A stretch of DNA of 64,000 nucleotides, from positions 27,182 to 91,181 of the forward strand of contig JBHEML010000001.1 in the NCBI GenBank assembly GCA_046262615.1, given 5' to 3'. The stretch's first letter is position 1; each line of letters begins with the position of its first letter. This DNA comes from Candidatus Limnocylindria bacterium (lineage in GTDB: Bacteria; Chloroflexota; Limnocylindria; P2-11E). The position numbers were made by a program, and so were the translations under genes. Under the pieces are notes generated by a model. The model ran no database searches. It was given only the letters and a program-made list of their open reading frames with translations, and was not told the DNA's origin. This document shows positions 32,439 to 62,186 of this stretch, in pieces.

Positions 32439-32457
32439 CGCGAAGGGGGAGACGAAG

Positions 32458-33369
32458 ATGGCGGTCATCGCTCAGCGAGCCCCCGCGAGGCGAAGCGGGA
32501 TCCAGTCCTCGCAGATGCGGGCGGGCCTCATCTTCGTTTCCCCCTACCTCTTGTACTTCCTGATCTTCCAGGTGGGGGCGCTGGCGTTCGCCTTCTGGTT
32601 CAGCCTCCAGCGCTACGACCTGCTGGCCCTGGACAACCCGTTCGTGGGCCTGCGCAATTACGAGCGACTCCCACTCAACGAGGACTTCCGGAAGGCGCTG
32701 TCGAATACGGCTGCCTACGCGATCGTCGTCACGATCCTCCAAACGATCTTCGCCCTGATCATGGCGGTCCTGCTCGACGCCAAGATCAAGGGTCAGTCCT
32801 TCTTCCGTTCCGCCTGGTACACGCCGTCGATCGCCTCCACCGTGGTGATCTCGATGATCTTCCTCTGGATCTACCACCCCACGGGCCTGCTGAACTCGCT
32901 ACTCGGACTGGTGGGGATCCAGGGCGACAACTGGCTCCAAGACACCCGCACCGCGCTCCCCGCGATCATGGGCCTCAATATCTGGACGACCGCCCCGACG
33001 TTCATGGTGGTTTTCCTCGCCGGGTTGCAGGAGATCCCCAAGGAGATCTACGAGGCCGCTCAGGTCGACGGCGCGGGGGGCGTCCGCCGCTTCTTCTCGA
33101 TGACGATCCCGCTCCTGCGGCCGATCATCTTCCTGGTGGTCGCGCTCGGGATCATCGGCACGTTCCAGGTCTTCGACCAGGTCTCGATCATGACCCAGGG
33201 CGGTCCACTGAAGGCGACGCTGACCGTCGCCTACCTCATCTACCAGAACGTGTTCCGCGACGAGGGCCAGGTCGGAGTCGCGTGCGCGATGGCGTTCACG
33301 CTCGGGATCATGATCTATATCCTGACGATCCTTTCGCGTCGTTTTCTCGACGCGAAGATCGAGTACTGA
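32458..33369 (+). CDS. Carbohydrate ABC transporter permease (MalF/UgpA-like)
   Basis: 303 aa, 6 TM helices, EAA loop (YEAAQVDGAGGVRRFFSMTIPLL). Confidence 0.88.
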   Translation: MAVIAQRAPARRSGIQSSQMRAGLIFVSPYLLYFLIFQVGALAFAFWFSLQRYDLLALDNPFVGLRNYERLPLNEDFRKALSNTAAYAIVVTILQTIFALIMAVLLDAKIKGQSFFRSAWYTPSIASTVVISMIFLWIYHPTGLLNSLLGLVGIQGDNWLQDTRTALPAIMGLNIWTTAPTFMVVFLAGLQEIPKEIYEAAQVDGAGGVRRFFSMTIPLLRPIIFLVVALGIIGTFQVFDQVSIMTQGGPLKATLTVAYLIYQNVFRDEGQVGVACAMAFTLGIMIYILTILSRRFLDAKIEY

Positions 33370-46806: not shown

Positions 46807-48015
46807 CTGAGCGTCCTCGACGGCCGCTTCGTCGTCCTCGGCGTCACCGGTTCGGTCGCGGCGTACAAGACGATCGAGCTGGCCCGCCGGATGACGCAGG
46901 CCGGTGCGGCGGTGCAGGTGATCATGAGCCGGGGCGCGAGCGAGTTCGTGCAGCCGCTGACGTTCCAGGCGCTCACGTACCGTCCGGTCGCCATCGAGAT
47001 GTTCGGATCCCAGGAGGATCGCGCCGCGGGACACGTCGCCATGGGTGCGCGGGCCGACGTCGTCGTCGTGGCGCCGGCGACGGCGAACGTGCTCGCGCGC
47101 CTCGCTGCCGGGTTCGCGGACGACCTGATCGCGACGACCGTGCTCGCGACCGCGGCCCCGGTGATCGTCGCGCCGGCGATGGAGACGCACATGTGGGCGA
47201 ACCCCGCGACGCGCGACAACGTCGCGCGACTTCGGGCGCGCGGGATCGGCATCGTCGAACCCGAGCCGGGAGAGCTCGCGTCGGGAACGAGCGGAGAGGG
47301 CCGCCTCGCCTCGCTCGAGCGCATCTGGGCCGCGGTCGAGGACGCCGTTTCCGGTGGTCGCGCGCTCGCCGGTCGCCAGGTCGTGGTGACGGCCGGCCCG
47401 ACGGTCGAGCCGATCGACCCGGTGCGGGTCCTCACCAACCGCTCGAGCGGCAAGATGGGCTACGCCGTCGCGGCCGCGGCGCGTCGCGCGGGGGCCGACG
47501 TCACGCTGGTGAGCGGTCCGACCGCCCTGACGCCGCCCATGGGGGCGCGGCTGGTACGCGTCGAGACGGCGGACCAGATGCGCGACGCGGTGCTTACCTG
47601 CCTGGGGACGGCGGACGCCGTCGTCATGGCCGCCGCGGTCGCCGATTACCGCCCCGCCGAGGCGCGCGCGCTGAAGCTCAAGAAGCGCGACACAGGGGCG
47701 GAGTTCACCCTGACGATGGTGGAGAACGCGGACGTCCTGCGCGCCATCGTCGCGGACCGGCGGCCGGGGACGGTCGTCGTCGGCTTCAAGGCTGAGACCG
47801 GCGACGCCGCCGCGGAGGCCGAGCGCCTGCTCCGCGACAAGGGCGTCGACCTCGTCGTCGCGAACGACGTGAGCGAGGCGGGGTCCGAGTTCGGCTCCGA
47901 TACCGACCGCGTCTCGTTCGTGACGCGCGATGGCGTCGAACGGCTCGACCTCATGCCGAAGTCCGCCGTGGCGGAGCGCCTGATCGGGAGGATCGCGCAG
48001 CTGCTCGCTCGCTGA
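46807..48015 (+). CDS. coaBC: Bifunctional phosphopantothenoylcysteine decarboxylase / phosphopantothenate-cysteine ligase; inferred CTG start
   Basis: Track ORF 46891..48015 begins at MTQAG, but the flavoprotein N-terminal motif (L)SVLDGRFVVLGVTGSVAAYK lies in-frame upstream. The only start-like codon is CTG 46807, with GGAG 7 nt upstream. This gives 402 aa, the normal CoaBC size. Confidence 0.8.
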   Translation: MSVLDGRFVVLGVTGSVAAYKTIELARRMTQAGAAVQVIMSRGASEFVQPLTFQALTYRPVAIEMFGSQEDRAAGHVAMGARADVVVVAPATANVLARLAAGFADDLIATTVLATAAPVIVAPAMETHMWANPATRDNVARLRARGIGIVEPEPGELASGTSGEGRLASLERIWAAVEDAVSGGRALAGRQVVVTAGPTVEPIDPVRVLTNRSSGKMGYAVAAAARRAGADVTLVSGPTALTPPMGARLVRVETADQMRDAVLTCLGTADAVVMAAAVADYRPAEARALKLKKRDTGAEFTLTMVENADVLRAIVADRRPGTVVVGFKAETGDAAAEAERLLRDKGVDLVVANDVSEAGSEFGSDTDRVSFVTRDGVERLDLMPKSAVAERLIGRIAQLLAR

Positions 48016-48096
48016 TCCGCGAGACCCGCGTGCTCCGTCCGCCGCAACGGGTATGCGCGAGTCCTCGTCGGTCGCCGCGGCTATCGTGCGCCGCCT

Positions 48097-48765
48097 ATGG
48101 CGCTCGAGTGGCTCACCTTCGATTGCTACGGGACGCTCATCGACTGGGAGGGAGGCGTCTTCGCGGCGCTCGCGCCACTCCTGCCGCCGGGCGTGGAGCG
48201 AGACGACCTCGGGCGCCGCTACATCTCCGCGGAGGCCGCGATCGAGGCGGAAGCCTACCTCCCGTACCGCGACGTGCTCGACCGCGCCGGCCGCGCCGTG
48301 CTGCTGGACCTCGGGCGCGCGCTCCGCCCGGACGAGCCGAATCCGCTGCCTGACTCCGTCCCGGCATGGGCGCCGTTCCCCGAGGTGCCGATGGCGCTGA
48401 AGCAGTTGCGCGAACGCGGCCTGCGCCTCGCGGTCCTGTCCAACGTGGACCGTGATCTGATCGCGCCCTCGATCGCGCGGCTCGGCGTGACGCCCGACCT
48501 GGTCGTCACCGCGGAGGATTGCCGTAGCTACAAACCCGCGGAGGGCCACTGGCGGCGCTTCGAGCGCGAGTCCGGCGCGGGACCCGAGACGGCGATCCAC
48601 GTCGCCGCGAGCCAGTACCACGACATCGCCCCCGCGACCGCCCTCGGCTATCGCACCGTGTTCGTCAACCGTCACGCCGAGCTGATCGGCGACGTGGAGC
48701 CCGCCGCCCAGATCCCGGACCTCGCATCGCTGCCGGAGGCCATCGCCCGACTCTCGACGGGCTGA
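48097..48765 (+). CDS. HAD-superfamily hydrolase (haloacid dehalogenase type II-like)
   Basis: 222 aa with motif I FDCYGTLIDWE, plus LSNVD and a K...D late motif. Confidence 0.75.
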   Translation: MALEWLTFDCYGTLIDWEGGVFAALAPLLPPGVERDDLGRRYISAEAAIEAEAYLPYRDVLDRAGRAVLLDLGRALRPDEPNPLPDSVPAWAPFPEVPMALKQLRERGLRLAVLSNVDRDLIAPSIARLGVTPDLVVTAEDCRSYKPAEGHWRRFERESGAGPETAIHVAASQYHDIAPATALGYRTVFVNRHAELIGDVEPAAQIPDLASLPEAIARLSTG

Positions 48766-49977
48766 ATGCGGGCCGCGGGGGTCTTCGAGCCGCTACGCCA
48801 CCGCGACTTCCGGCTGCTGTGGGTTGGGCAGACGGTGTCGATGCTTGGCACCTTCGTCGACCTCGTCGCGCTGCCCTTTCAGATCCTCGCGCTCGGGGGA
48901 ACGCCTGTGCAGCTGGGCATCGTCGGCGCCTGCTTCGCTGCGACGCAGGTGCTTTTCCTGCTGTTCGGCGGCGCGGTCGTCGATCGCCTTCCGCGGCGCG
49001 CGGTCATCCTCGCCAGCGACTTCGCCAGCGCCTGCGTCGCGGGGGCCGTCGCCGCCCTGGGGTTCTCGGGGCGGCTGACGATCGAGCACCTCTACGTCGC
49101 CTCGGCGCTCTTCGGCATCACCTCGTCGTTCTTCATCCCGGCGATGGGCGCGATCATCCCCGAGCTCGTTCCGCCGGACATCCTGCTCGCCGGCAACGCG
49201 CTGCGCGGCTTCTCGCGCCAGGCAGCGCGGGTGACCGGCCCGGTCCTCGGTGGTGTGCTCGTCGCGTCGGCCGGTCCGCCGACGGCGTTCCTCGTGGACG
49301 CGCTCACGTTCCTGTTCAGTTTCGGCGCTCTGTTCCTCGCGAGTCCCCCTCACGCACCTCACGCCGCGGCGCGGACCCACATCCTGCGTGAGGTCGGTCA
49401 GGGGCTGCGCTTCACGTTCTCCCTCTCCTGGCTCTGGATCACGATCTTCGGGTTCGCGCTGGTGAATGCGGCCATCGTCGGGCCGCTCGTCGTTGGCCTG
49501 CCGGTCCTCGTGCGGGACGTCCTGAGGGGCGACGCGAGCACGTTCGGGGCGATCAACGCTGCGGTCGGCGTGGGCGAGATCGTGGCCACGCTGCTCGTCG
49601 CGCGGTTGCCGAGGGGTCGCAGCGGGACCCTCATGTACCTCTTTGTCGCGGTGAGCGGGGCCGCGATCGCGGCTATCGGGGTCGTTGCCGCCTTGCCCGT
49701 CATCCTGCTGCTCGCCGCCGCGTTCGGGATGACCATCGTCTGGTTCAGCGTCCTGTGGGAGACATCGCTCCAGCGGCACGTGCCGCGGGACCTGCTCGGG
49801 CGCGTCACCAGCGTCGACTACTTCGGCGGCACCCTGCTCGGCCCCGTCGCTCCGCCACTCTTCGGCATCGTCATCGAGCGCGTCGGTACCGCACCGGCGT
49901 TCGTCGTGAGCGGCGTCGCCGTCGTCGCGTTCTCGCTGGCGGGTCTGCTCGTACCCTCCGTGCGGCGGCTCGAGTGA
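48766..49977 (+). CDS. MFS transporter (EntS/MFS_3-like)
   Basis: 403 aa with 12 predicted helices. N-terminus FRLLWVGQTVSMLGT and GAVVDRLPRR. The ATG directly follows the HAD gene stop. Confidence 0.8.
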   Translation: MRAAGVFEPLRHRDFRLLWVGQTVSMLGTFVDLVALPFQILALGGTPVQLGIVGACFAATQVLFLLFGGAVVDRLPRRAVILASDFASACVAGAVAALGFSGRLTIEHLYVASALFGITSSFFIPAMGAIIPELVPPDILLAGNALRGFSRQAARVTGPVLGGVLVASAGPPTAFLVDALTFLFSFGALFLASPPHAPHAAARTHILREVGQGLRFTFSLSWLWITIFGFALVNAAIVGPLVVGLPVLVRDVLRGDASTFGAINAAVGVGEIVATLLVARLPRGRSGTLMYLFVAVSGAAIAAIGVVAALPVILLLAAAFGMTIVWFSVLWETSLQRHVPRDLLGRVTSVDYFGGTLLGPVAPPLFGIVIERVGTAPAFVVSGVAVVAFSLAGLLVPSVRRLE

Positions 49978-50053
49978 TGCCGACCCGTGGCCCGGTCCAC
50001 GCGATCCGCCGGCTCGATGAGCGCGGCCGCGCGCGCTCGTATCCTGCGTTCCG

Positions 50054-51292: not shown

Positions 51293-53104
51293 TCAGGCGA
51301 GCCTTGCTCGCGCCTCCACGTACGCCGGTACGGTGATCATCGGCTGGCGCTCGATCGCGGCGATGTCCTGCAGCTCGAGGTGGAACTGGCCTCCGTCATC
51401 GTCCGAGATGAGCTTCATCGTCGCGTTCGCGTCCTCCAGGAGACGCTCGCCGCGGGCCTCGCCGACGCGCCGTAGCGCGACCTGCAGGATCTCGAAGCTC
51501 ATCTTCGACAGCGCGTAGAGGCTCTGGTTGCGATGGATCCGCTGCTTCATGTCGACCTGCGCGATGGCGGACAGCCCGGCGCGCTGGAGGATGTCGATGA
51601 GGAGCCCTGTCTCCACTCCATAGCCTGTGAAGAACGGCAGCTGCTCGAGCAACGAACGGCGGCCGCCCTGCTCGCCAGAGAGCGGCTGCACCATCCCCGA
51701 CAGTTCGGGAAAGAAGAGGTTGAGGATGGGCCGCGCCGACAGCTCGGTCACCCTGCCGCCTCCGGTCGCCTGGAGTTCACCTCCGAGGTGCAGGGGCCGG
51801 CGGTAGAAGGCCTTCACGAAGGCGATCTCCGGTCGCATCAGGAGCGGCCCGAGGATGCCGTACACGAACTTCGGATGGATGTTGGAGATGTCGGTGTCGA
51901 TCCAGATGACGATGTCTCCGGTGAGCACGTGGAGGCTCTTCCACAGCGCCTCGCCCTTCCCGCGGTGCGCACCCATCTCGGGGAGCACCTCCTGGTGCAC
52001 GAAGACCGGCACGCCCTCGGCCCTGCCGATCTCGCGCGTGCGGTCGTCCGAGCCTGAATCGATGATCACCAGCTCGTCGATGATCGGGAAGCGCTCGACG
52101 AGCCGCGAGCGTACGGCCCGGACGACTCGGCCGATCGTCGCCTCCTCGTTGAGCGTGGGAAGGCCGACCGAGATGCGGAGCCGCTGCCGCGTCTTCGCGT
52201 CGAACAGGCGCCGCAGGTCGGCGAACTCGCTGCTGGCGAACGTGTTCTCGACGAACCACTTGTCGACGATCTCGCCGATGGCGCGGCTCCGCTCGGCGCG
52301 GTCCAGGGGAAGGTCCGTGCGCGGCAGGAAGATGCTCGACGCGACCGGCGTCTTGGTCCGCACCACGATCGCCGGACGCCCGCTGCGGATGACGCTCTGC
52401 CCGACCGGTCCGAGCGGGTCGGGGGAGCCCTCGCGACCGGTCGCGCCGATGACGATCGCGTCGTGCGCGGAGAGCTCGTCCGCGATGACCGCCACGGGCT
52501 CGCCCGCCCGGCTCGCAACCTGGTCGATGCGCGCGTCGAACGCCGGTCCGCCGAGCGCCCCGTACAACGCGCCGCGCCAGCGGTCGTCGCCCGCCCCGGC
52601 CATGACGTGCAGCAGGGTCACGCGGCCGCTGCGGCGGCGGGCCAAGGCCAGCGCGACGCGCACCGCGAGCTGGGCGTAGCGGCCGCCCCGGACCGGGACC
52701 AGCAGATGGCGCGCGCGCGCGAAGCTGCCCTTGACGATCGCCACGTCGCACGGCGGGTCGCGCAGGATCTCGTCGATCGAGATGCCGAACAGCTCCGATC
52801 CCGAGCGCCGCCAACCGACGATGAGCAGATCCGGGCGCTCCTTCTTCACCGCTTCGACGATCGCCTGCCAGCCGCGGCGCGCCACGGTCACGAGGACCCG
52901 CACGCTTCCCGCCGCGCCCGCCGAGCGGACCATCGCGTCCAGCGCACGCCGCCGGGCGCGGGCTTCGGTCTGCGCCGACGCGAGGGGCGCGTCCTCTCCG
53001 ACGACGATCACCGATGCCAGCAGCACGTCGTCGGCGACCGCGATCGCCACTTCGATAAGCCCGCGGTCGCGCGTGGGGTCGTCGAACGCGATGAGCGCCC
53101 TCAT
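51293..53104 (-). CDS. gpgS: Tandem universal-stress-protein (USP) domains fused to a GT81 glucosyl-3-phosphoglycerate synthase-like glycosyltransferase
   Basis: Track ORF 51293..53116; ATG 53104 forms an ATGA overlap with the GT4 stop. Residues 1 to about 270 are two USP-like alpha/beta units (LLIVGWRR...CDVAIVKG; VIGATGRE...PAIVVRT). The C-terminal region has VGLPTLNEEATIG, IIDSGSDDRT, WIDTDI and QPLSGEQGG, as in GpgS/MpgS. Confidence 0.75.
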   Translation of the reverse strand: MRALIAFDDPTRDRGLIEVAIAVADDVLLASVIVVGEDAPLASAQTEARARRRALDAMVRSAGAAGSVRVLVTVARRGWQAIVEAVKKERPDLLIVGWRRSGSELFGISIDEILRDPPCDVAIVKGSFARARHLLVPVRGGRYAQLAVRVALALARRRSGRVTLLHVMAGAGDDRWRGALYGALGGPAFDARIDQVASRAGEPVAVIADELSAHDAIVIGATGREGSPDPLGPVGQSVIRSGRPAIVVRTKTPVASSIFLPRTDLPLDRAERSRAIGEIVDKWFVENTFASSEFADLRRLFDAKTRQRLRISVGLPTLNEEATIGRVVRAVRSRLVERFPIIDELVIIDSGSDDRTREIGRAEGVPVFVHQEVLPEMGAHRGKGEALWKSLHVLTGDIVIWIDTDISNIHPKFVYGILGPLLMRPEIAFVKAFYRRPLHLGGELQATGGGRVTELSARPILNLFFPELSGMVQPLSGEQGGRRSLLEQLPFFTGYGVETGLLIDILQRAGLSAIAQVDMKQRIHRNQSLYALSKMSFEILQVALRRVGEARGERLLEDANATMKLISDDDGGQFHLELQDIAAIERQPMITVPAYVEARARLA

Positions 53105-54417
53105 CGGGCCTTCCACCGCGCCAGGCGCTCGTCATGGCCGGGTGGATCCGCGCGCCGCGTGCGGCCAGTGGCCCGGCGCTGGCCGGCCGGCGTCCTTGCG
53201 GGGGACCGCGGGTCGGCAAGGATCAGCGGCAGTGCCAACTCCGCGAGCACGCGGGGCCAGGCGTGCGCGCGGGCGCGCATCCTGAGGCGAGCCGCGCGGT
53301 CCCCGTCCATCCGGCGCAGCGTCGCGGCAGCGATGGCGGCGCCATCCGCGTCGGGCGCGACGTACGTGACGTCGTCGCCCCCGATCGCCCGCAGCGCCGG
53401 GATGTCACTGCAGACCACCGGCAGCCGGTGGAGTCCCGCCTCGAGCAGCGGGATCCCGAAACCCTCGCTCGCGCTGGGCAGGACGAGCGCATCGGCCAGC
53501 GCGTAGAGGTCCGCGACGACGCGGTACGTCGCGCGGATGCCGAGGGCGTGCAGGAGGTGGACGCCTTCGGTCGCCAGCGCCCGCAGCTCCGACGCGTAGC
53601 GCTCGTTCGTCGCGTTGTGCGCCCCCGGCGTGCCGGTCACGACCAGCGCGGCGCGGGGCCAGCGTTTCCGAACCAGCGGGAGCGCGGCGATCGCGGCCTC
53701 GACGCGCTTGCGCCGCGTGAGCCTGGCGGGAAGCAGGAGCAGGGGGCTCGCGTCGAAGAGCCCGAGGCGCGCGGCGAGGCGCGCGCCCGCGGGCGAGAGT
53801 CCGAGCGTGGCGGCGATATCGATCCCGTTAGGCACGACCGCGATCGCAGAGCGCCGGACGCCCAGCGCATCGGCCAGCTGCCGCCTGCGCTCGTCGGACA
53901 CCGCCACATAGCGCACCCCGGCGACCGCGCGTGACAGGCGGTCCCACGGGTCGCCCGAATGGCGCTGCGCGGCGTACTGCGGGTCTGCCCAGGCGATGTC
54001 GTGCGTCCATGCGATGAAGCGCCCGGGGTGCTCGCGAGCGAGCCGCTCGAGCGCCGCGGTCAGCGCGGGATTTTTGTGCATCGTGAACGCGTTGTGCACC
54101 ACGACCCGGTCGGTCCTCGCGACGTGCGGACGGAGTTGACTATAGATGTCGTCCGCGAGTCGGCCGTGATCCTCGCCGATCTTTCCCCGCGCGAGGGACG
54201 CGAAGTCGCGCAGCACCCGCGCGTTCTTCGAGTCGATCTCCGCGATGCGCACCAGCTGCACCCCGGAAGGTGACGCACGGCCGCGTCCGGCGATGATCGA
54301 AACGCGCACGCCCGCGTCGCGCAGTGCCGCCGCGTGCACGCCCATCACCTGCTCGACGCCGCCGAGGACCGCGGGGGACGTGTAGTGGAGGAGGGCGACG
54401 CGCGGGGCGCGAGACAG
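53101..54417 (-). CDS. GT4 family glycosyltransferase; inferred CTG start
   Basis: Track ORF 53101..54348 starts inside the fold. The in-frame upstream sequence reads (L)SRAPRVALLHYTSPAVLGGVEQVMGVH, the canonical GT4 N-terminus. The only start-like codon is CTG 54417, 1 nt after the upstream TGA. C-terminal motif SASEGFGIPLLEAG (EX7E). Confidence 0.8.
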   Translation of the reverse strand: MSRAPRVALLHYTSPAVLGGVEQVMGVHAAALRDAGVRVSIIAGRGRASPSGVQLVRIAEIDSKNARVLRDFASLARGKIGEDHGRLADDIYSQLRPHVARTDRVVVHNAFTMHKNPALTAALERLAREHPGRFIAWTHDIAWADPQYAAQRHSGDPWDRLSRAVAGVRYVAVSDERRRQLADALGVRRSAIAVVPNGIDIAATLGLSPAGARLAARLGLFDASPLLLLPARLTRRKRVEAAIAALPLVRKRWPRAALVVTGTPGAHNATNERYASELRALATEGVHLLHALGIRATYRVVADLYALADALVLPSASEGFGIPLLEAGLHRLPVVCSDIPALRAIGGDDVTYVAPDADGAAIAAATLRRMDGDRAARLRMRARAHAWPRVLAELALPLILADPRSPARTPAGQRRATGRTRRADPPGHDERLARWKAR

Positions 54418-54418
54418 C

Positions 54419-56527
54419 TCAGGCCACCGCCGGCTCGCGCACCATCGCGACGCGGCCCCTGCCGCCTCTGATCCTCATCCCGCGGCGTGTGCGCTTCGCC
54501 GTGAACGCGACCCGCGCCTCATGCACGCGCAGGTCCCGCACCGCCACGTGGTCGAGCCACGAGGGCAGGACCGGGTCCGCGCAGAGGCGCTCGTGCTCGA
54601 GGTCCGGCTCCAGACCAAGGAGCACGCGGAGGCAGAGAAAGACCACCCCCGCGGACCAAGCCTGCGGGATGCACGACACGAGGTAATCGGCCGGCCGCGA
54701 GGAAAAACGCAGGTCGCGAGCGAAGCCGCAGAACAACTCTGGCAGCCGCGCGTCGGGGAATCGGCGCCCAGCCTCGAGCAGCGCGTCGACGATCGTGTTC
54801 GCCTCCTGGCGGAAGCCGTACCGCGCGAACCCGTGCGCGACGAGCGAGCTGTCGTGCGGCCACACGGAGCCGTTGTGATAGCTCATCGGGTTGTACGTCG
54901 GATACCTGCTCGACAGGGTGCGGACGCCCCAGCCGGTGAACATGTCGGGGGCCATCAAGCGGTCGGCGAGGGCGCGCGCCTTCTCCTCCGGCACTATGCC
55001 GCACCAGAGCGCGTGTCCGGCGTTGCTCGTCACCGCGGGCACCTGGCGCTTGGAGCCGTCGAGCGCCTGGGCATAGCAGCGCTCCTCGGGCATCCAGAAG
55101 TCGCGGTCGAAGCGATCGCGCAGCTCGCGCGCCTGGTCGCGGAGGCGCCGCGCCCGTTCAGTGTCGCCATTCAGCGCGTACAGATCCGCGAGCCCGCTTT
55201 TCGCGGCGTAGACGTACGCCTGCACCTCGACGAGCGCCGCCGGTAGCGAAGATTGGGTGCCGTCCCGGTCGGACAGCGAATCCCACGAGTCCTTCCATCC
55301 CTGGTTGCGAAGCTCCGATCGGCGCCCGCCGTACTCGACGTAGCCGTCGCGGTCGAGGTCGCCGTACGTGTCGCACCACTCCAGCGCGCGTTCGGCTGCG
55401 GGGAGGAGCTCCCGCCAGAGCGCCCGGTCCGCGGTCCATTTCACGGTCTCCGCGAACACGAGCGCGAAGAGCGGGGTGGCGTCGACCGCGCCGTAGAACG
55501 GCCGGTGCGGTGTCTCGCCGAGGCGCGCGAGCTCGCCGCGGCGCAGCTCGTGAAAGATCTTGCCGGGCTCCTCCTCGGTGAACGCGTCGGAGCGCGTCCC
55601 CTGGTGCTTCGCCAGGAGGCGCAGCGTCCCTCGGGCCAGGTCCGGGTTCCACGCGAGCGTCTGGTACGCGGCGATGAGGCCGTCGCGCCCGAACGGGACC
55701 GCGTACCAGGGGATACCAGCGGTCGGGTACGGCCCGGTCTCCTCGAACTCGATGAGCGCGCGGAGGTCGAGCGCGCTGCGGTTGATCAGCTGCTCGTCGA
55801 GGCTCTCGATGCCGGTGCGGTACTCCGCGCACGACCGCAGGAATCGCCGGTACGAAGAGTTCAGCGCGTCGAGCGCCTCGTCGAACCCGCGCGGCGAGGA
55901 GGCCTCGCCGGTGCCGTCCTCTCTCGGGATGATCGACAGCTCGAGGCGCAGCACGCCCTGAGGCGGAAGCGTGCGCTCCACGAGGACGGTCCGGTCGGTC
56001 ACGCGGTCGGGCGCCGGCGACACGGCGATGTCCGTCGTGCGCCGCACCTCGTCGCGTCCGAGGCGCTCGAATACGAGCCCTGACGGTGTCGCGCGGAGCA
56101 CCGTCTCGGGCTCGACGTGGGCCTTTCCGCGGTAGCCGCGCACGGTGAACATGTCGCGAAAGCTCGCGTCGAACTCCAGCTCTACGCGCAGCTCCACCGG
56201 CTGCGTGTTGCAGTTGAGGATCCCGATCCGCTCGCGCCAGCCGTCGGCGAGGAAACGCGTTCGCCGCACGGACAGCGATTGCGCCGCGAGGGTCTCGCCC
56301 CCCGGCAGTGGCGCCGCCGCGTTCACGAGCTGGAACGTGCCGACGTAGTTCTGCTCGGTGTTGTTCGACAGCAGCAGTGGCGCGGCGCCGTTGATCCGCA
56401 GCGCGAATCCCGACAGGAACTGGGTGTCGTGGTAGTAGAGCCCGAGCGCGCTGTGGCCGCCGAGCGGAAGGCCTCCGTCGTCGTCCGATACGAGGACGAG
56501 CGCATCCTCCTTCAGCGCGACGGTCAC
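54419..56527 (-). CDS. Amylo-alpha-1,6-glucosidase / GDE-type glycoside hydrolase (GDE_N_bis plus GDE_C-like)
   Basis: GTG 56527 overlaps the upstream stop (GTGA) and gives 702 aa. Motifs GLYYHDTQFLS, GIPWYAVPFGRDG, FYGAVDATPLF, NQGWKDSWDS and YHNGSVWPHD indicate an (alpha/alpha)6 barrel hydrolase. Confidence 0.8.
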   Translation of the reverse strand: MTVALKEDALVLVSDDDGGLPLGGHSALGLYYHDTQFLSGFALRINGAAPLLLSNNTEQNYVGTFQLVNAAAPLPGGETLAAQSLSVRRTRFLADGWRERIGILNCNTQPVELRVELEFDASFRDMFTVRGYRGKAHVEPETVLRATPSGLVFERLGRDEVRRTTDIAVSPAPDRVTDRTVLVERTLPPQGVLRLELSIIPREDGTGEASSPRGFDEALDALNSSYRRFLRSCAEYRTGIESLDEQLINRSALDLRALIEFEETGPYPTAGIPWYAVPFGRDGLIAAYQTLAWNPDLARGTLRLLAKHQGTRSDAFTEEEPGKIFHELRRGELARLGETPHRPFYGAVDATPLFALVFAETVKWTADRALWRELLPAAERALEWCDTYGDLDRDGYVEYGGRRSELRNQGWKDSWDSLSDRDGTQSSLPAALVEVQAYVYAAKSGLADLYALNGDTERARRLRDQARELRDRFDRDFWMPEERCYAQALDGSKRQVPAVTSNAGHALWCGIVPEEKARALADRLMAPDMFTGWGVRTLSSRYPTYNPMSYHNGSVWPHDSSLVAHGFARYGFRQEANTIVDALLEAGRRFPDARLPELFCGFARDLRFSSRPADYLVSCIPQAWSAGVVFLCLRVLLGLEPDLEHERLCADPVLPSWLDHVAVRDLRVHEARVAFTAKRTRRGMRIRGGRGRVAMVREPAVA

Positions 56528-57738
56528 CGGTCCCACCCCGCGCGCAGATAGGACTTCTCGTCCTCGAACGCGCGTGCCTGCGCTTCCACCGCGCGCTCCG
56601 CCCCGGCGGTGTCGGCGCCGGCGACCTCGGCGATGAAGGCTTCGACGCGCGCGAAATAGAGCGGCACCAGCGAGGCGACGTAGGCGCCGGTGCGTTCGGG
56701 CGACCGGCGGCACGCGAGCAGCGCGTCGTAGACCACGCGCGCCCACCCCGCGCGCCAGCGTTCGGGAGCCACCGCGCCGCCCGCGGCCTCGTGGACGAGC
56801 GCGAGCTGGTCCGCTGCGAGCATCTCCTTCCACGCGTCGCCCTGGTCCGTCGCACCAGCGAGGAAATTGCGCCGCAGCGTGGCCGCGCTGGCGTTCACCG
56901 GCTCGGGCTCGACCGCCGCGGCCTCGCCCAGGACCTCGGCCGGCCGCGAGCCTTCCACGCCGCCCCACGCCGCGGCGTTGCGCACAGCGAGGCGGATCGC
57001 GGTCCCGACGACCTGCGCGAACATGGGCGCGAGGTCTGCGCCCGGGTCCTTCGGATCGTGGATCTTCGCCCCGAGGAACGCCTGCGCGACCCGTTCGCCG
57101 CGCACGAGCGCGGTCGTCGTCATGTAGACGTCTATCCCGAATCGCGCGACGTCCGTCTCCCACACCGCGGCCGCATCGCCCGCGGCCCCGCCGCCGAGGA
57201 AGGCGCGCGCGAGATCGCCCGAGAACCCGAACTCGCCGCCGATCGGCTGGCGCACGCGCAGGCCGTAGAGCGCCCGCGTCAGCGGGTATGCGATGGAGTT
57301 GGTGATCGTCCCATCGTGCTTGTGTCGCGCGTACAGCGGAGCCACGTACGTCGCGCGGCCGTCGACCACCGGGCCGAGCAGGCGCGCGATCCATTCCGGC
57401 GTGATGCTGCGCAGGTCGCTGTCGACGACCGCGCACGCGCGCGCGCCCAGTCGCTCTGCGGCTTCAAAGATCGCGCGGAACGCGGAGCCCTTGCCCGGGA
57501 TCCCGCGGTAAGCGCCGCTGACGACGGGTACGTCCCCCGCGCCGGCGCGCACCCGATCCGGGGTGCCGTCGCTCGAGCCGCCGTCCGCGTTGACGATGGC
57601 GCTCCGCGCATCGGGGAACGCCTCGCGCAGGCCGCGCGCTACCGAGCGCGCGACGTGCTCGACGGTGGACGCGTTGTTGTAACTCGGGATGCCGACGAGG
57701 AGATCGGCGCCGCCGATCCGCGCGACGCCGTCCCGCAT
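56524..57738 (-). CDS. GT-A fold glycosyltransferase (GT2-like, distantly GT78/GT81-like) with a helical C-terminal domain
   Basis: ATG at codon 89 of track ORF 56524..58002 gives 404 aa. Motifs LVGIPSYNNASTVEHV, NADGGSSDGT, VVDSDL (DxD) and RQPIGGEFGF. GTG 57822 is an alternative start. Confidence 0.7.
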   Translation of the reverse strand: MRDGVARIGGADLLVGIPSYNNASTVEHVARSVARGLREAFPDARSAIVNADGGSSDGTPDRVRAGAGDVPVVSGAYRGIPGKGSAFRAIFEAAERLGARACAVVDSDLRSITPEWIARLLGPVVDGRATYVAPLYARHKHDGTITNSIAYPLTRALYGLRVRQPIGGEFGFSGDLARAFLGGGAAGDAAAVWETDVARFGIDVYMTTTALVRGERVAQAFLGAKIHDPKDPGADLAPMFAQVVGTAIRLAVRNAAAWGGVEGSRPAEVLGEAAAVEPEPVNASAATLRRNFLAGATDQGDAWKEMLAADQLALVHEAAGGAVAPERWRAGWARVVYDALLACRRSPERTGAYVASLVPLYFARVEAFIAEVAGADTAGAERAVEAQARAFEDEKSYLRAGWDR

Positions 57739-57811
57739 GCGCTCGTCCAGTCCGGTGGCCCCTTCCCCGGCGCGCGCATCGGCGGGCGATGCCGGATGCG
57801 CCACTTCGGCG

Positions 57812-58471
57812 ATGATAGCCACGGTGCTCGACGCGCTCGACGCGATCGTGATCCCCTTCCTTGAGTCGCTGTACTCCGCGCTCGGGTACGCGGGCGTCGC
57901 GCTGGCCATGACGATCGAGAGCGCGGCGATCCCGGTCCCGAGCGAGGTCATCCTTCCCTTCGCCGGTTGGGTCGTCTCGCGCGGACTCGTCGAGCCGCTC
58001 ACCGGCGCGCCGTGGACTTACGCCGGTGCCGTCGCCGCCGGTCTGGTCGGCAACACGGCGGGATCGCTCATCGCGTACGCCGTGGGCGCCTATGGCGGGC
58101 GCCCCTTCCTCGAGAGATTCGGCAGGTACGTGCTCATCAGCGGCCACGACCTCGACCTCGCGGACCGCTGGTTCGGGCGCTACGGCGATGCGACCGTGTT
58201 CTTCTCTCGGATGCTGCCCGTCGTGCGCACCTTCATCAGCCTTCCGGCAGGCATCGCGCACATGCCGCTCTGGCGCTTCCTGGTCTTCTCCGTCCTCGGG
58301 GCCCTGCCGTGGATCATGCTGCTCGTCTGGGGCGGCGTCGTGCTGGGCGACCACTGGCTCGACCTCAAGCGCTCCCTCAAGGGCCTCGACTACATCGTCG
58401 TGGCGGTCGTCGTCCTCCTCGTCGGGCTCTTCGTCTACCGCCACGTCCGGCGGTCCCCGGCGCGCCGCTAG
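57812..58471 (+). CDS. DedA family membrane protein
   Basis: ATG at codon 42 of track ORF 57689..58471 gives 219 aa. Motifs AMTIESAAIPVPSEVILPFAG, GRPFLERFGRY, FFSRMLPVVRTFISLPAG. Confidence 0.85.
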   Translation: MIATVLDALDAIVIPFLESLYSALGYAGVALAMTIESAAIPVPSEVILPFAGWVVSRGLVEPLTGAPWTYAGAVAAGLVGNTAGSLIAYAVGAYGGRPFLERFGRYVLISGHDLDLADRWFGRYGDATVFFSRMLPVVRTFISLPAGIAHMPLWRFLVFSVLGALPWIMLLVWGGVVLGDHWLDLKRSLKGLDYIVVAVVVLLVGLFVYRHVRRSPARR

Positions 58472-58522
58472 TGGGTCGCGTCGGCGAGCACCGGCCGCGG
58501 AACACCGCCGTGCGCGGCTAAA

Positions 58523-61492
58523 GTGGACGCCCTGCGCGACGCGCTCGGCGCGTTCGATACGCAGCTGTACCTCGCGATCACGACCTCGCGCAACGCCGTC
58601 ACGGCGGCGATCGCGACGCTCCTCGTATTGGCGAACGCCTTCGGGCTCATGTGGTGGGTCTTCGGGCTCGGCGCGATGCGCGGCCGGGGCCTCGGACGGC
58701 GCGGGGCGTGGATCCTCCTGACCGTCTTCCTCGGCACCGTCGACGGCTGGTTCACCGCCGAGATACTGAAGTTCGTCTTCCGCCGCGTGCGTCCCTTCCT
58801 CGCGATCCCCGGCGTGGCGGAACCCCTCATACCGGGTCCGCAGTCGTACTCGTTCCCCTCGGGAGATGCCGCGCTCGCCTTCGGCGCCGCCGTCGCGCTC
58901 GGGAGCGTTCTCCCGCGGCTGCGTATCCCCGCCGTGCTCCTTGCGACAGCGGTCGCGCTGTCGCGCGTCGGCGTGGGGGTCCACTACCCCTTCGATGTCG
59001 TTGGGGGCGCGGCTCTGGGCGTCGCGTCCGGGGTCCTCGCCCCGCGCGGGGTACAGATCATCCGCCGACAGCTGCGCTGGCGTGCCTTCGTCGTGGCGCA
59101 CACCCACTGGGACCGCGAGTGGTACGAGCGCTTCGAGGGGTACCGCGCGCGCCTGGTCCCGATGGTCGCGGGCCTCCTCGACATCCTCGAGCGCGACCCC
59201 TCGTTCCGCTCGTTCACCTTCGACGGGCAGACGATCGCGATCGAGGACCACCTCGCCGTCCGCCCGGGCGATCGACCGCGCGTCGAAGCCCAGGTCGGAT
59301 CGGATCGGCTGTTCATCGGCCCCTGGTACGTCCTCGCGGACCTGTTGCTGGTCTCGGGGGAGTCGCTCCTGCGGAACTTCGAGGAGGGCCTGCGAGTGGC
59401 GGCGACATTCGGGCGGGCGATGCGCGTCGCCTACGTCGCAGACCCGTTCGGCCACCCCGCGCAGATGCCCCAGGTCCTTCGGGGCTTCGGGTACACGAGC
59501 TACGTGTTCGCGCGCGGGGTGGGAGACGAGGGGGAGGAGCTTGGGAGCGAGTTCTGGTGGGAATCGCCCTCCGGCGACCGCGTCCTCGCATCGCACCAGG
59601 TCGCGCACTACGCGAACGCCCGGCCGCTGGTGGGCCCGGTCGACGAGACCCCAACGGTGCTGCGCGCCCGCGTCGCGCGCGTGCTGCCTCGCATCCTCGA
59701 CCGGACCGCCCCGTACGCGAGTGGCGACGCGCTCCTGTTCATGGTCGGGGATGACCACGTCGAGACGTACCCCCGGCTGCCGGACGCGGTCGAAGCGATC
59801 CGCGCGGTCGCGCCGCGCGTCGACGCGCGGATCGCGTCGCTCGAGGAGTTCGTCGCCGCGCTGCCCGCGCCGCGAGGGACCTTCGCCGGAGAGATGGTCT
59901 CCGGAAAGTACCGCCCGATCCTTCGCGGCGTGAACTCGACGCGCGTCTGGATCAAGCAGGAGAACGCACGATGCGAGCGGCTCCTGATCGAACGGTGCGA
60001 GCCGCTCGATGCCTTCGCCGGCGGCTCGGCGCGCGAGGCGATCCGCGGCCTCTGGCGCACCCTGCTCGAGAACCAGCCCCACGACTCGATCTGCGGGTGC
60101 TCGATCGACGCTGTCCACGACCTCGACATGGCGCCTCGCTTCAGGCGCGTCATCGAGGAGGGACGGCAGCTTGTGGATGCGCTCGCCGTGCGGCTCGATG
60201 GCGGTGCCGACGCTGTGGCGTGGAGTGCGCTGCCGTGGGAGCGCGACGCCGTCCTCGACCAGGGCGGCGTCCCGACCGCGGTCCACTGCGCGGCTCTGGG
60301 TACCGCGCCGGCGCGTCGGGCACCGGTGCGCCCCCCCGGCTCGCCGGAAGAGGGGGTGATCGAGAACGAGGCGCTGCGCGTCGAGGTCGGGACGGACGGC
60401 AGCTTCCACGTGGTCGACCGCGCCACGGGTGTGCGCTCCGGCCCTCACAACATCCTGCTCGACGAGGGCGATCGCGGCGACGAGTACACGTACTCGTACG
60501 CCGGTCCGACGGTGGGGTCGCGCGGCATCGCCGGCCGGCGCGCGACGGTCGTGTCTGGGGACCGCGCCGCGGTCACGGTCGAGCTCACGCTGCCGCTGCC
60601 CTTCTCGCTGCGGGAGGATCGCCTGGCGCGGACCGCCGAGACCGTCGCCTGCCCCATCCGCGCGGTCGTGTCGCTGGACGCGGGCGCCGCTCGTGTCGAT
60701 GTGGCGCTCCACGTGGACAACCGCGCCCGCGACCACCGGCTGCGCGTGCTATGCGAGACCGGTGGACGGGGCGTCACCCACCTCGCCGGGGCGGCGTTCG
60801 CGTGGCTCGAGCGCCCGAACCGCGTGCCGCGCAAGCCCGGCTGGGTCGAGCCTCCGACCGAGACGCGCGCGCTGCACGACATCGTGGCTGTCGAACGCTC
60901 GGGGAACTGGTTCGCCGTGGGGGTCGATGGCCTCCGCGAATACGCCATCCTCCACGACGGCAACACCATCGCGGTCACGCTCCTGCGAGCGGTCGGGTGG
61001 CTTTCCCGCAGCGACCTGCGGGAGAGAAAGGGCGGAGCCGGCCCCGAGCTCGAGACGCCGTCCGCCCAGTGTCCGGGCGAGCGCGAGTACCGATACTCAG
61101 TGGTGCCCCGCAGCCGGTCGCTCGCCCAGGCGGAGCGCCGCATCCGGGAATGGCTGTCGCCGCCGTGGGTCGGGCAGGGCAGTGGCGTGGCGCGCTCGTT
61201 CCTCGACATCGGCGACTCTCCGCTGAGGCTCTCGTCCGTCAGGTCGGCCGCGGACGGCCGCGTAGCGGTTCGCATGGTCAACCCCGGTGCCGAGGCCGCG
61301 TCCGCCGTCCTGCGTTTCGCGAGCGCGGCGACCGAGGCAGCCGTCGTGGATCTGCGTGAAGGCGACACCGGCCTCGGCCGCACCGGGCTCGATGTCATCC
61401 GCACGGCGGCACCGGCGGAGGTCGTTGGGGGCGCGCTCGCGGTGCGCCTGGAGCCGTACGAGATCGGCACCTGGCTCGTGCGCCTCGAGTGA
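58523..61492 (+). CDS. Fusion protein: N-terminal membrane PAP2 (acid/lipid phosphatase) domain plus GH38 alpha-mannosidase
   Basis: 989 aa, GTG start. Residues 1 to about 205 have 5-6 TM helices with KFVFRRVRP (KX6RP), PSGD (normally PSGH) and SRVGVGVHYPFD (SRX5HX3D). From residue about 215 it reads VVAHTHWDREW...GPWYVLAD...DPFGHPAQMPQ, the GH38 N-terminal catalytic domain, followed by the central and C-terminal beta domains. Confidence 0.8.
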   Translation: MDALRDALGAFDTQLYLAITTSRNAVTAAIATLLVLANAFGLMWWVFGLGAMRGRGLGRRGAWILLTVFLGTVDGWFTAEILKFVFRRVRPFLAIPGVAEPLIPGPQSYSFPSGDAALAFGAAVALGSVLPRLRIPAVLLATAVALSRVGVGVHYPFDVVGGAALGVASGVLAPRGVQIIRRQLRWRAFVVAHTHWDREWYERFEGYRARLVPMVAGLLDILERDPSFRSFTFDGQTIAIEDHLAVRPGDRPRVEAQVGSDRLFIGPWYVLADLLLVSGESLLRNFEEGLRVAATFGRAMRVAYVADPFGHPAQMPQVLRGFGYTSYVFARGVGDEGEELGSEFWWESPSGDRVLASHQVAHYANARPLVGPVDETPTVLRARVARVLPRILDRTAPYASGDALLFMVGDDHVETYPRLPDAVEAIRAVAPRVDARIASLEEFVAALPAPRGTFAGEMVSGKYRPILRGVNSTRVWIKQENARCERLLIERCEPLDAFAGGSAREAIRGLWRTLLENQPHDSICGCSIDAVHDLDMAPRFRRVIEEGRQLVDALAVRLDGGADAVAWSALPWERDAVLDQGGVPTAVHCAALGTAPARRAPVRPPGSPEEGVIENEALRVEVGTDGSFHVVDRATGVRSGPHNILLDEGDRGDEYTYSYAGPTVGSRGIAGRRATVVSGDRAAVTVELTLPLPFSLREDRLARTAETVACPIRAVVSLDAGAARVDVALHVDNRARDHRLRVLCETGGRGVTHLAGAAFAWLERPNRVPRKPGWVEPPTETRALHDIVAVERSGNWFAVGVDGLREYAILHDGNTIAVTLLRAVGWLSRSDLRERKGGAGPELETPSAQCPGEREYRYSVVPRSRSLAQAERRIREWLSPPWVGQGSGVARSFLDIGDSPLRLSSVRSAADGRVAVRMVNPGAEAASAVLRFASAATEAAVVDLREGDTGLGRTGLDVIRTAAPAEVVGGALAVRLEPYEIGTWLVRLE

Positions 61493-61500
61493 GGAGCGCG

Positions 61501-61588
61501 CCGCACCAACGGACGACACGCCGCGCACCAACGGACGACAGTGGGCGCACCAACGGACGACAGCCCGCGCACATTGGGGGGACAGACG
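61501..61588. repeat. 22-bp-period tandem direct repeats (3 near-perfect copies plus 1 degenerate)
   Basis: 61501 ccGCACCAACGGACGACAcgcc / 61523 gcGCACCAACGGACGACAgtgg / 61545 gcGCACCAACGGACGACAgccc / 61567 gcGCACattGGggGACAgacg. The 16-nt core is identical in copies 1-3. They lie in the intergenic region after the PAP2-GH38 stop. Confidence 0.85.
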
Positions 61589-61605
61589 CGACACGCACGA
61601 ATGGC

Positions 61606-61611
61606 TACGTT
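61606..61611 (+). promoter_or_regulatory. Candidate -10 box (TACGTT) for leaderless mRNA of the secreted protein gene
   Basis: TACGTT is followed by 8 nt and then ATG 61620. The tandem repeats end where a -35 element would be. Confidence 0.35.
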
Positions 61612-61619
61612 CCGGCGCG

Positions 61620-62153
61620 ATGTCACGTCCGGTCCGGGTCCTACTCGTCGCCCTCGCTGCCGCGCTCCTGCTCTCGGCGTCGGATCCCGCCGCCGCGGAC
61701 GACGGTTGGCGGTTCCGCCGTACGACGCCGCGGGCCGCGCTGCTCCTCGAGGCCGATGGTTACGAGATCGGGGTCCCGGGCGGCCGGGCGTGGGGCATCG
61801 AGAGCGGCCTTCGCCCGCTGACGGGCACATCCCGGGTCGTCTTCGAGATCGCCGTCGATGATCCGGCGGTCCGCGAGGCGTTCCTGCGCGTCGCGTACTA
61901 CGACCGCGAGACCGGCCGGCCGCGGCAGATGGCGATCGCTGACTCCGCGGTCGTGCGCGTCGGCGAGGACCGGGTCGTCTCGGTCACCCTGGAGCCGCCC
62001 ACCGGCGCCATCGCCTACCGGGTGCGGGTGCTCGCTCGGCTGTCACCGGGCGCCCGCGCATCCGCCTCGGACGCCATTCGCGTAAGCGGTGCCGACGCTC
62101 TCTGGACGCTCGGACCGCGACCGTACACGCGGCTCCGCCCGGATGGCCCGTGA
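61620..62153 (+). CDS. Secreted hypothetical protein
   Basis: ATG at codon 112 of track ORF 61287..62153 gives 177 aa. Signal peptide MSRPVRVLLVALAAALLLSASDPAAA, then a beta-rich body with no motif I recognise. Confidence 0.6.
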   Translation: MSRPVRVLLVALAAALLLSASDPAAADDGWRFRRTTPRAALLLEADGYEIGVPGGRAWGIESGLRPLTGTSRVVFEIAVDDPAVREAFLRVAYYDRETGRPRQMAIADSAVVRVGEDRVVSVTLEPPTGAIAYRVRVLARLSPGARASASDAIRVSGADALWTLGPRPYTRLRPDGP

Positions 62154-62186
62154 CATACTGGCCAGACTTTCAGTTGAGCCAGGGAG

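Follow-up and report, generated by a model that had tools for sequence, protein, structure and literature searches.

A conserved, translationally coupled operon of Candidatus Limnocylindria that may direct the synthesis of a glucosylglycerate-family compatible solute

We analyzed a 64,000-nucleotide stretch of a Candidatus Limnocylindria genome (Chloroflexota; contig JBHEML010000001.1, positions 27,182 to 91,181), referred to below as the window, and in particular four tightly packed minus-strand genes, designated A to D, which occupy its positions 57738 to 51293 (Table 1). They encode a GT-A glycosyltransferase resembling glucosylglycerate synthase (Ggs) and mannosylglycerate synthase (MGS) (gene A), a GH176 glycoside hydrolase (gene B), a GT4 glycosyltransferase (gene C) and glucosyl-3-phosphoglycerate synthase (GpgS) fused to two universal stress protein (USP) domains (gene D). 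We propose that these genes belong to a class-wide locus of Limnocylindria for a compatible solute of the glucosylglycerate (GG) family, whose end product would most likely be a diglycosylglycerate similar to mannosylglucosylglycerate (MGG). This reading is held with roughly even confidence.

The window has a G+C content of approx. 72%, and its genes were recovered by a codon-position GC screen and a listing of open reading frames (ORFs). Domains of the encoded proteins were assigned by Pfam, NCBIfam and PDB searches. In the gene D product, Pfam identified two Usp stretches and Glycos_transf_2. The protein scored 370 bits against the NCBIfam equivalog model of GpgS, NF010496 (cutoff 262 bits; model positions 5-305 of 307), matched the structures of MpgS/GpgS of R. 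xylanophilus (2e-68) and mycobacterial GpgS (2e-64), and is identical (100%) to an NCBI protein named GpgS from a metagenome-assembled genome (MAG) of Ca. Limnocylindria.

Alignment with the Rubrobacter and mycobacterial structures revealed the motifs GKGE (Lys of the Asp-Lys-Glu network), DTD (metal binding), GGGRVTE (acceptor loop), PLSGE, GYGVE and RIHRN (metal-binding His). The roles of the GpgS residues, including those of the acceptor loop (main chain of Val186, and Thr187), have been described for the M. tuberculosis enzyme, and the PLSGE loop was proposed to favour glucose over mannose (PMC2581804). The C-terminal domain of the gene D product is therefore a bona fide GT81 GpgS as judged from its intact catalytic and acceptor motifs, with predicted enzymatic activity. 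The first-pass annotation, made from the DNA sequence alone, had placed the domain in GT81; the two outcomes named beforehand as contradicting this placement, a domain outside GT81 or one devoid of the acceptor residues, were examined and neither is the case.

A scan of one genome per species identified 429 genomes with a relative of gene A, and the best 80 loci of these were compared with the window proteins by tblastn. The closest relatives are Ca. Limnocylindria MAGs (gene A identity of 97% in JBBPYG010000003.1), and across the Limnocylindria/Chloroflexota loci the gene A orthologs are 56 to 97% identical to that of the window. The operon, with the same gene order and mostly 4-nt overlaps, is present in approx. 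55-70 species-level genomes of Candidatus Limnocylindria. The 4-nt overlap is the modal junction between all neighbours (A/B in 46 of 68, B/C in 40 of 57 and C/D in 45 of 55 cases), a recurrence which far exceeds chance and bears out the translational coupling suggested earlier.

Among these best 80 loci, all Limnocylindria/Chloroflexota loci whose flanks are long enough share one gene order: genes encoding a MalK-type ATPase, a 177-aa secreted protein, a PAP2-GH38 fusion and a VTT/DedA protein lie on one strand, and genes A, B, C and the USP-GpgS gene on the other. The flank 3′ of gene D (in the window, genes for an F420-type LLM oxidoreductase, HIT, MFS, HAD and CoaBC proteins) is kept in only 1-6 loci, in contrast to the VTT/PAP2-GH38/177-aa protein/MalK side, which is kept in 48-70. 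Since one flank is conserved and the other is not, the block is under selection and not merely unrearranged. The conserved unit spans approx. 51293..63278, with a sharp edge at the 3′ end of gene D; the four genes at 51293-57738, initially taken for the whole unit, are all part of it, but it runs further, to 63278.

In the 97% relative, different genes follow the operon on its 3′ side (locus L001, 12445..16968): two for FGGY kinases, one for a 2-hydroxyacid dehydrogenase and one for a member of the His-phosphatase family. All other loci examined lack these genes in the vicinity of the operon, which marks the end of the USP-GpgS gene as a rearrangement hotspot.

The gene junctions in the window proved to be exactly as given in the first-pass annotation (GTGA, TGA-g-CTG and ATGA). 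At the A/B junction (cgG TGA) the stop codon of gene A (TGA, 56526-56524) overlaps the start codon of gene B (GTG, 56527-56525), which opens with GTG-ACC-GTC. At the C/D junction (cgA TGA) the stop codon of gene C (TGA, 53103-53101) overlaps the start codon of gene D (ATG, 53104-53102), which opens with ATG-AGG-GCG and is preceded by GGAAGG. At the B/C junction, where gene B ends at 54421-54419, there is no canonical start codon for gene C.

The reading frame of gene C contains no ATG, GTG or TTG between the upstream stop codon and position 54348, where the first canonical codon (GTG) occurs, and its sole start-like codon is the in-frame CTG at 54417-54415. Initiation at GTG 54348 would remove the conserved RVALLHYTSPAVLGGVE N-terminus, which corresponds to the first strand and the glycine loop of the GT4 domain; the GT4 models align with the gene C product from residue 6 on. 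In most orthologs a GTG or ATG overlaps or abuts the gene B stop codon. It is therefore plausible, from the sequence, that gene C starts at the CTG or by coupled re-initiation. A canonical start is missing in the sub-lineage of the window and in a few other loci (L074 among them). In the window, in L001/L003 and in L004, an in-frame CTG comes just after the gene B stop codon.

For gene A, the start was placed at ATG 57738, which yields a protein of 404 aa; no other canonical start is common to the window and its two closest relatives. The gene is possibly longer (an in-frame GTG is present at 57804), and more distant orthologs have approx. 10 further conserved N-terminal residues (ATGLDxRM). 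A 2-nt GC indel in a GCGCGC run upstream of gene A (57770..57781 of the window, minus strand, vs approx. 5825..5835 in L001) puts the annotated gene A ATG of the 97% relative out of frame in the window; it reflects either a genuine difference or an error in MAG assembly. A tRNA-Lys gene is the only Rfam match in the window, with neither a riboswitch nor any other Rfam element near the operon, and a scan for consensus promoters and terminators was uninformative.

The product of gene A was modelled with AlphaFold2 (pLDDT 88), which placed helices at residues 285-403, behind the GT-A domain. The top Foldseek matches of the model were full-length MGS structures of Rhodothermus (2y4j, 2y4k, 2bo4 and 2bo7; TM 0.62-0.75 over approx. 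410 columns, including the C-terminal helical domain), and GpgS structures superpose only on the GT-A half. In sequence, the protein is weakly similar to GpgS (50 bits on NF010496; 8e-6 in the PDB search), and HMMER pairs its PGKG, VVDSDL, QPIGGEF, LGAKIH and DGTITN with PGKG, FIDSDL, QPL(S/G)GEY, LGVRAH and GGRVTE of GpgS, respectively, so that the Lys, the DSD motif and the metal-binding His are matched.

The acceptor loop of gene A (T144-I145-T146) aligns with R-V-T of GpgS; thus, the Arg is replaced by Thr and the Ile/Val-Thr pair is kept. This pair (Ile-Thr in MGS, Val-Thr in GpgS) binds the carboxylate of glycerate (PMC2581804). The loss of the Arg is suggestive, and only suggestive, of glycerate instead of 3-phosphoglycerate as the acceptor. 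Several gene A orthologs carry the JGI product name "glucosylglycerate synthase". Taken together, the model, the motifs and the gene context indicate that gene A is probably a one-step Ggs.

Outside Limnocylindria, relatives of gene A occur in three contexts: (i) with gpgS (NF040724-type, 381 bits), an MPGP-family phosphatase gene (TIGR02461, 246 bits, above the cutoff), a LapA-like gene and a gene for an unknown 387-aa protein preceding gene A, and an MscS-like gene following it, (ii) in the order HAD gene, 617-aa GT4-like gene, gpgS, gene A, or (iii), in one genome, in the order gene A, USP-GpgS gene, MPGP-family phosphatase gene.

The gpgS-gpgP-ggs-like operons of the first type were found in Syntrophaceae and Thermodesulfobacteriota (loci L077, L078, L079 and L081). 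They also hold the gene for the small LapA-domain protein, with the MscS-like gene downstream, and the 387-aa protein (approx. 8800..9960 in L078), which is conserved among them, has no Pfam or NCBIfam match. In the second type (L082, 94..5571; L076, 1982..7399) the HAD phosphatase has 315 aa, the 617-aa GT4-like protein is weakly similar to mannosylglucosylglycerate synthase (MggS) and GpgS is of the Methanococcoides type; this cluster may be the full MGG-type locus of a different phylum.

The fold of the gene A product raises a different possibility, namely that it is an MGS and that two solutes are made in parallel: mannosylglycerate, degraded by the MngB-like GH38 domain encoded next to the operon, and GG, degraded by the GH176 enzyme, with the GT4 enzyme being optional. 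Apart from the structural match, this would agree with the QPIGGEF motif, which has Gly and Phe in place of the Ser and Tyr of the hydrogen-bonded PLSGE-Y network of GpgS, which was proposed to exclude mannose, with an Asp in place of Glu232 of GpgS, as in MGS, and with mannosylglycerate hydrolase as the best NCBIfam match of the GH38 domain. The sequence similarity of gene A is, however, to GT81 GpgS and not to GT78, and both the pipeline names and the operon partners (GpgS, GpgP) indicate the glucosyl series. Moreover, MGS is promiscuous, as Flint et al. reportedly found in 2005, so the fold leaves the donor open. We regard the MGS assignment as very unlikely.

The best NCBIfam models for the gene C product were that of the MSMEG_0565 glycosyltransferase (63.7 bits) and, second, that of MggS (NF041101, 58.8 bits), which ranked above MshA, GlgA, BshA and the trehalose, glycogen and sucrose enzymes. 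Three of the listed gene C orthologs (64-65% identity) bear the JGI name "mannosylglucosylglycerate synthase". MggS is thus the closest characterised relative of gene C by sequence, but the curated threshold does not make gene C an MggS ortholog. A Pfam GT4-conflict match on gene C was considered as a sign of a defence system and rejected, as it overlaps the generic GT4 models.

The distance from MggS leaves some room for two separate functions within one operon, in which GpgS and the Ggs-like enzyme would produce GG only and the GT4 and GH176 enzymes would form a pair acting on a neutral alpha-glucoside of the kojibiose, trehalose or sucrose type. Consistent with this, the PDB neighbours of gene C, with similarly weak scores, include trehalose synthase TreT, sucrose-phosphate synthase and maltose-1-phosphate synthase, its score lies far under the MggS cutoff, and the GH176 enzyme has at its +1 subsite the residues (H326/E327) by which the reducing glucose of kojibiose is bound. 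Nevertheless, MggS is among the top two models, a distant relative of gene C (25% identity) is located between the HAD phosphatase and GpgS-Ggs genes in other phyla, and the strict coupling to both GG synthases in approx. 55 species favours a single pathway. The division into two functions therefore seems rather improbable.

Gene B matched the Pfam families GDE_N_bis (7e-46), MGH1-like_GH (2e-22) and GDE_C (4e-11) and, over residues 14-641, the structure of TgAMY (PDB 7vma; 4e-98), the founding member of GH176. A recently studied GH176 enzyme, A8F5, is a specific inverting alpha-1,2-glucosidase of clan GH-G; the same preprint questions the claim of alpha-1,6 "debranching" activity for GH176 and points out several large GH176 clusters without known function (bioRxiv 10.64898/2026.07.01.735942). 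The active-site residues reported for A8F5 in this preprint (R286/D287, H335/E336, W425/D427, Y565/H566/W571, E611 and Q634/W636) have counterparts in gene B with consistent spacing (R281/D282, H326/E327, W411/D413, Y550/H551/W556, E597 and Q622/W624), as mapped by motif and spacing and not by structural superposition. D413 lies within QGWKDS, a motif also contained in the primer used for the D427N mutagenesis of A8F5.

The catalytic acid (Asp) and base (Glu), the fixer Asp and the kojibiose-contacting residues are invariant in 64 orthologs. By these residues, gene B encodes an active-looking alpha-glucosidase of GH176 and not a glycogen debrancher. The first-pass annotation had called it a debranching hydrolase of the GDE type: the GDE_N_bis/GDE_C architecture is indeed present, but the family is GH176, which is of the alpha-1,2-glucosidase type. 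The architectures proposed for the two transferases (GT4, and GT-A with a helical domain) were upheld as well by the Pfam searches and the AlphaFold2 model.

GG and MGG are alpha-1,2-linked, a linkage which suits a GH176 alpha-1,2-glucosidase. GH176 has only now been given its first well-defined activity, on kojibiose, a sugar rare in nature, and the location of a GH176 gene between transferases of a GG pathway suggests that glucosylglycerates with an alpha-1,2 linkage are among the natural substrates.

The pathway that we infer, including donors, acceptors, product, the catabolic part of the hydrolases, the role of the USP domains and the physiological role, would comprise the following steps: (i) gene D would transfer glucose from NDP-glucose to 3-phosphoglycerate, yielding glucosyl-3-phosphoglycerate, and the nucleotide-binding USP module may couple this reaction to the stress state of the cell, (ii) gene A would form glycosylglycerate from an NDP-hexose and D-glycerate in one step, as a branch without a phosphatase, (iii) gene C would add a second alpha-linked hexose, most likely mannose from GDP-mannose, to give a diglycosylglycerate similar to MGG, and (iv) for turnover, the MngB-like GH38 enzyme, the obvious partner for this task, would remove mannose, and gene B, as an inverting enzyme whose pocket is of the alpha-1,2 type, would hydrolyse the Glc-alpha-1,2 bond. 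Two routes to MGG have been described: GpgS, MggA and MggB in succession, or Ggs followed by MggS, without a phosphatase (PMC3736172).

It had been noted earlier that no described pathway was known for this gene set, and that two extra transferases and a debranching-type hydrolase suggest an oligosaccharide. Neither view is supported, as a Ggs-like gene A and an MggS-like gene C match the steps of the published phosphatase-independent MGG route (PMC3736172). A known or near-known solute of the GG/MGG type is therefore more likely than a wholly undescribed glycoside.

The absence of a GpgP gene, and of the methyl- and acyltransferase genes for mycobacterial methylglucose lipopolysaccharide (MGLP), was correctly recognized at the outset. 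Within ±10 kb of the operon, no GpgP of the MPGP or His-phosphatase type is encoded in any ortholog locus, apart from the His-phosphatase-family gene of L001, and no MGLP methyl- or acyltransferase in any of them; the mycobacterial MGLP set (GH57, alpha-1,4-glycosyltransferase, methyltransferase and acyl/octanoyltransferase) is not among the neighbours in the window or the ortholog loci. The lack of a phosphatase at the locus is explained by the Ggs-MggS route, which needs none. Literature searches found no orthologous cluster with a characterised product, which would have contradicted the first-pass annotation, and no publication in which GG is connected with GH176, USP fusions, GH38 or Limnocylindria.

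Several candidates for additional pathway members were considered and rejected: (i) the PAP2 domain as the missing GpgP, since its motifs face outward, glucosyl-3-phosphoglycerate is cytoplasmic and its best models are lipid-carrier phosphatases, (ii) the HAD gene at 48097..48765 as GpgP, since it is type II haloacid-dehalogenase-like (122 bits; cutoff 125) and keeps its position in no more than 6 loci, (iii) the His-phosphatase, 2-hydroxyacid dehydrogenase and FGGY genes of L001, which occur in that genome only, and (iv) a GpgP of the MPGP type, which is present in no Limnocylindria locus.

A number of observations weigh against the proposed MGG-like pathway. With a hydrolase translationally coupled between synthases, futile cycling would be expected in the absence of post-translational control. 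Gene A shows no match to the Pfam family of GT78 MGS (PF21969) when E values of up to 1 are allowed, and two of its orthologs score 23 bits, short of the cutoff of 27. A profile of gene A orthologs finds GpgS and not MGS among the PDB sequences; MGS was reached by the fold search only. The score of gene C on NF041101 is far below the equivalog threshold (cutoff 640 bits). The His-Glu pair at the +1 subsite of GH176 fits a neutral sugar better than the carboxylate of glycerate, although this pair is family-wide and does not fix specificity. Finally, an outward-facing PAP2 domain fused to GH38, together with an UptA-like flippase, points to the metabolism of an envelope lipid carrier.

The genes divergent from the operon are listed in Table 1. 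The ORF of the VTT protein opens at 57689, and the 219-aa protein is counted from ATG 57812; it scored 172 bits on the UptA model NF052604 (cutoff 250), and its ortholog in the 97% relative is also called as 219 aa. In the PAP2-GH38 fusion, the GH38 domain has the mannosylglycerate hydrolase MngB (NF007331) as its best NCBIfam match, with a score of 368 bits (equivalog threshold 1138), and matches streptococcal and enterococcal GH38 structures (PDB 3lvt and 2wyh; 1e-72 to 3e-75), with the motifs HxHWDREW, DxFG and PHDSICGCS aligned.

The PAP2 domain carries the motifs KX6RP, PSGD and RX5HX3D (vs KX6RP, PSGH and SRX5HX3D in the family) and scored weakly on models of SepP/UppP-type undecaprenyl-diphosphatases (SepP, 59 bits vs a cutoff of 250). 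Arg-rich loops at residues 52-60, 131-136 and 175-187 (charge distribution, positive-inside rule) predict that the PAP2 motifs face outward and that the GH38 domain is located in the cytoplasm. All 71 orthologs share the His to Asp exchange in motif 2 (PSGD); in motif 3, the Ser varies. The fusion itself is conserved in all Limnocylindria loci (orthologs in L002-L074).

Another role for the locus, in line with the first-pass annotation, would be the synthesis of a GG-primed oligosaccharide or lipoglycan, in which GpgS and Ggs would prime, the GT4 enzyme extend and GH176 and GH38 trim the chain, with the UptA-like and PAP2 proteins handling a polyprenyl-phosphate carrier or a membrane-linked product. 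GpgS does prime MGLP in mycobacteria (PMC2581804, PMC3240985), the hydrolase is co-translated with the transferases, synteny with the operon is strict for the PAP2 (UppP/SepP-like) and UptA-like genes but not for the other flank, and a secreted protein and an ABC ATPase belong to the conserved block. On the other hand, a single extending transferase is present, the elongation enzymes (GH57 and glycosyltransferase) and the methyl- and acyltransferases are absent within ±10 kb, no polymerase, Wzx-type flippase or membrane glycosyltransferase is encoded at the locus, and the PAP2 motifs are predicted to face outward, whereas the cytoplasm is the location of the GH38 domain and of all four proteins of the operon. 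Since gene A is Ggs/MGS-like and gene C is nearest to MggS, the two extra transferases do not imply an oligosaccharide, and we consider a GG-primed oligosaccharide or lipoglycan quite unlikely.

There is a small chance that the eight-gene block makes a glycerate-primed glycoside other than MGG or GG, such as kojibiosyl-glycerate or a glycosylglycerate which is linked to the membrane or envelope and handled by the PAP2-GH38 and UptA-like proteins, with this GH176 clade providing its dedicated hydrolase. If so, this would be the first physiological substrate for a large uncharacterised GH176 cluster and a signature metabolite of the uncultured Limnocylindria.

Table 1. Features of the conserved block (window coordinates)
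Feature	Position	Strand	Basis and remarks
Gene A, GT-A glycosyltransferase with C-terminal helical domain, candidate one-step glycosylglycerate synthase	56524..57738	-	Fold, motifs, context
Gene B, GH176 glycoside hydrolase, 702 aa	54419..56527	-	N-terminal beta-sandwich GDE_N_bis and (alpha/alpha)6 barrel
Gene C, GT4 retaining glycosyltransferase (GT-B), MggS-like	53101..54417	-	Pfam Glyco_transf_4, Glycos_transf_1, Glyco_trans_1_4; start uncertain
Gene D, USP-USP-GT81 GpgS fusion, 603 aa	51293..53104	-	Tandem USP, approx. residues 1-275; GT81, approx. 280-592
DedA/VTT membrane protein, UptA-like, 219 aa	57812..58471	+	Pfam VTT_dom; position conserved in all Limnocylindria loci
PAP2 (approx. 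residues 1-185) and GH38 alpha-mannosidase (approx. 186-989) fusion, 989 aa	58523..61492	+	Pfam PAP2, Glyco_hydro_38N/mid/C
177-aa protein with signal-peptide-like N-terminus	61620..62150	+	Same position in 48 loci, between the PAP2-GH38 and MalK-type ATPase genes
Orphan MalK/UgpC-type ABC ATPase, end of the conserved block	62187..63278	+	Pfam ABC_tran, OB_MalK, TOBE_2

The 177-aa protein has no Pfam match. The MalK-type ATPase scored 467 bits on the UgpC model NF008653 (cutoff 432), and its gene is located near the PAP2-GH38 gene in nearly all loci. Elsewhere in the window, the tRNA-Lys(UUU) gene (29299..29372) is followed by the stretch of lowest G+C content (0.63-0.68; 31161..33369, plus strand), which codes for a permease and a sugar-type ABC binding protein with no dedicated ATPase; importers of this kind could be served by the one encoded at 62187. 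Three 2-kb bins (8001..10000, 48001..50000 and 58001..60000) stand out by their strongly negative AT skew (-0.20 to -0.28), the second and third of which coincide with plus-strand genes for MFS and VTT/PAP2 membrane proteins.

Limnocylindria are abundant in soils and lakes, with no cultured representatives and no known stress physiology. Practically all genomes examined from this class contain the operon, which predicts that its product is the main glycosylglycerate-type protectant of these bacteria. The fusion of USP domains to GpgS suggests direct control of the committing step by nucleotides or stress. The locus turns both the question of the natural substrate of GH176 and the stress chemistry of Limnocylindria into direct experiments.

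Among known systems, that of Persephonella marina reportedly comprises ggs, gpgS and gpgP in an operon-like structure and offers two routes to GG (Fernandes and co-workers, 2007). The likeness lies in a candidate one-step glycosylglycerate synthase encoded together with GpgS, and the family of gene A is found in just such a gpgS-gpgP-ggs arrangement in other phyla; the Limnocylindria operon, however, lacks GpgP and adds the GT4 and GH176 genes, and its GpgS is of the actinobacterial GT81 (NF010496) type with two USP domains and not of the Methanococcoides/Persephonella type. The Persephonella GpgS and GpgP enzymes are cited in PMC3240985.

Petrotoga mobilis (PMC3736172) has a similar set of GpgS, a Ggs-type enzyme and a GT4 mannosyltransferase, and likewise a non-phosphorylating branch. 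In contrast, the similarity of gene C to MggS is distant, neither MggA nor MggB was identified in Limnocylindria, and the Petrotoga genes do not form one translationally coupled operon with a hydrolase. The mycobacterial GG/MGLP system (GpgS Rv1208, GpgP Rv2419c and the GH63 hydrolase GgH of M. hassiacum; PMC2581804, PMC3240985, PMC5381378) shares the GT81 catalytic residues and a clan GH-G (alpha/alpha)6 hydrolase as the candidate GG hydrolase, which belongs to GH176 in Limnocylindria and to GH63 in mycobacteria. Apart from the His-phosphatase-family gene of L001, no His-phosphatase GpgP, OctT, methyltransferase or Rv3030-3032-type gene is located near the Limnocylindria operon.

The GH176 enzymes TgAMY (7vma) and A8F5 of Arthrobacter humicola (bioRxiv 10.64898/2026.07.01.735942) have the same two-domain build, catalytic Asp/Glu, fixer Asp and kojibiose contacts as gene B; the characterised members act on kojioligosaccharides or, reportedly, maltodextrin, whereas gene B is part of a GG operon. 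E. coli MngB and the cytosolic GH38 enzymes (2wyh, 3lvt) share the metal and nucleophile motifs of the Limnocylindria GH38 domain, which differs in scoring below the MngB cutoff, in its fusion to a PAP2 domain with PSGD and in its pairing with an UptA-like DedA protein.

In the literature searched, there is no prior description of this gene set as a coupled operon, of a link between GH176 and glycosylglycerates, of USP-USP-GpgS as the class-wide standard GpgS, or of the conserved PAP2(PSGD)-GH38 protein encoded next to it. The families from which the locus is assembled (GT81 GpgS, MGS/Ggs-like GT-A, GT4, GH176, GH38, PAP2 and DedA) are all known, and the enzyme logic matches that of the Persephonella and Petrotoga systems.

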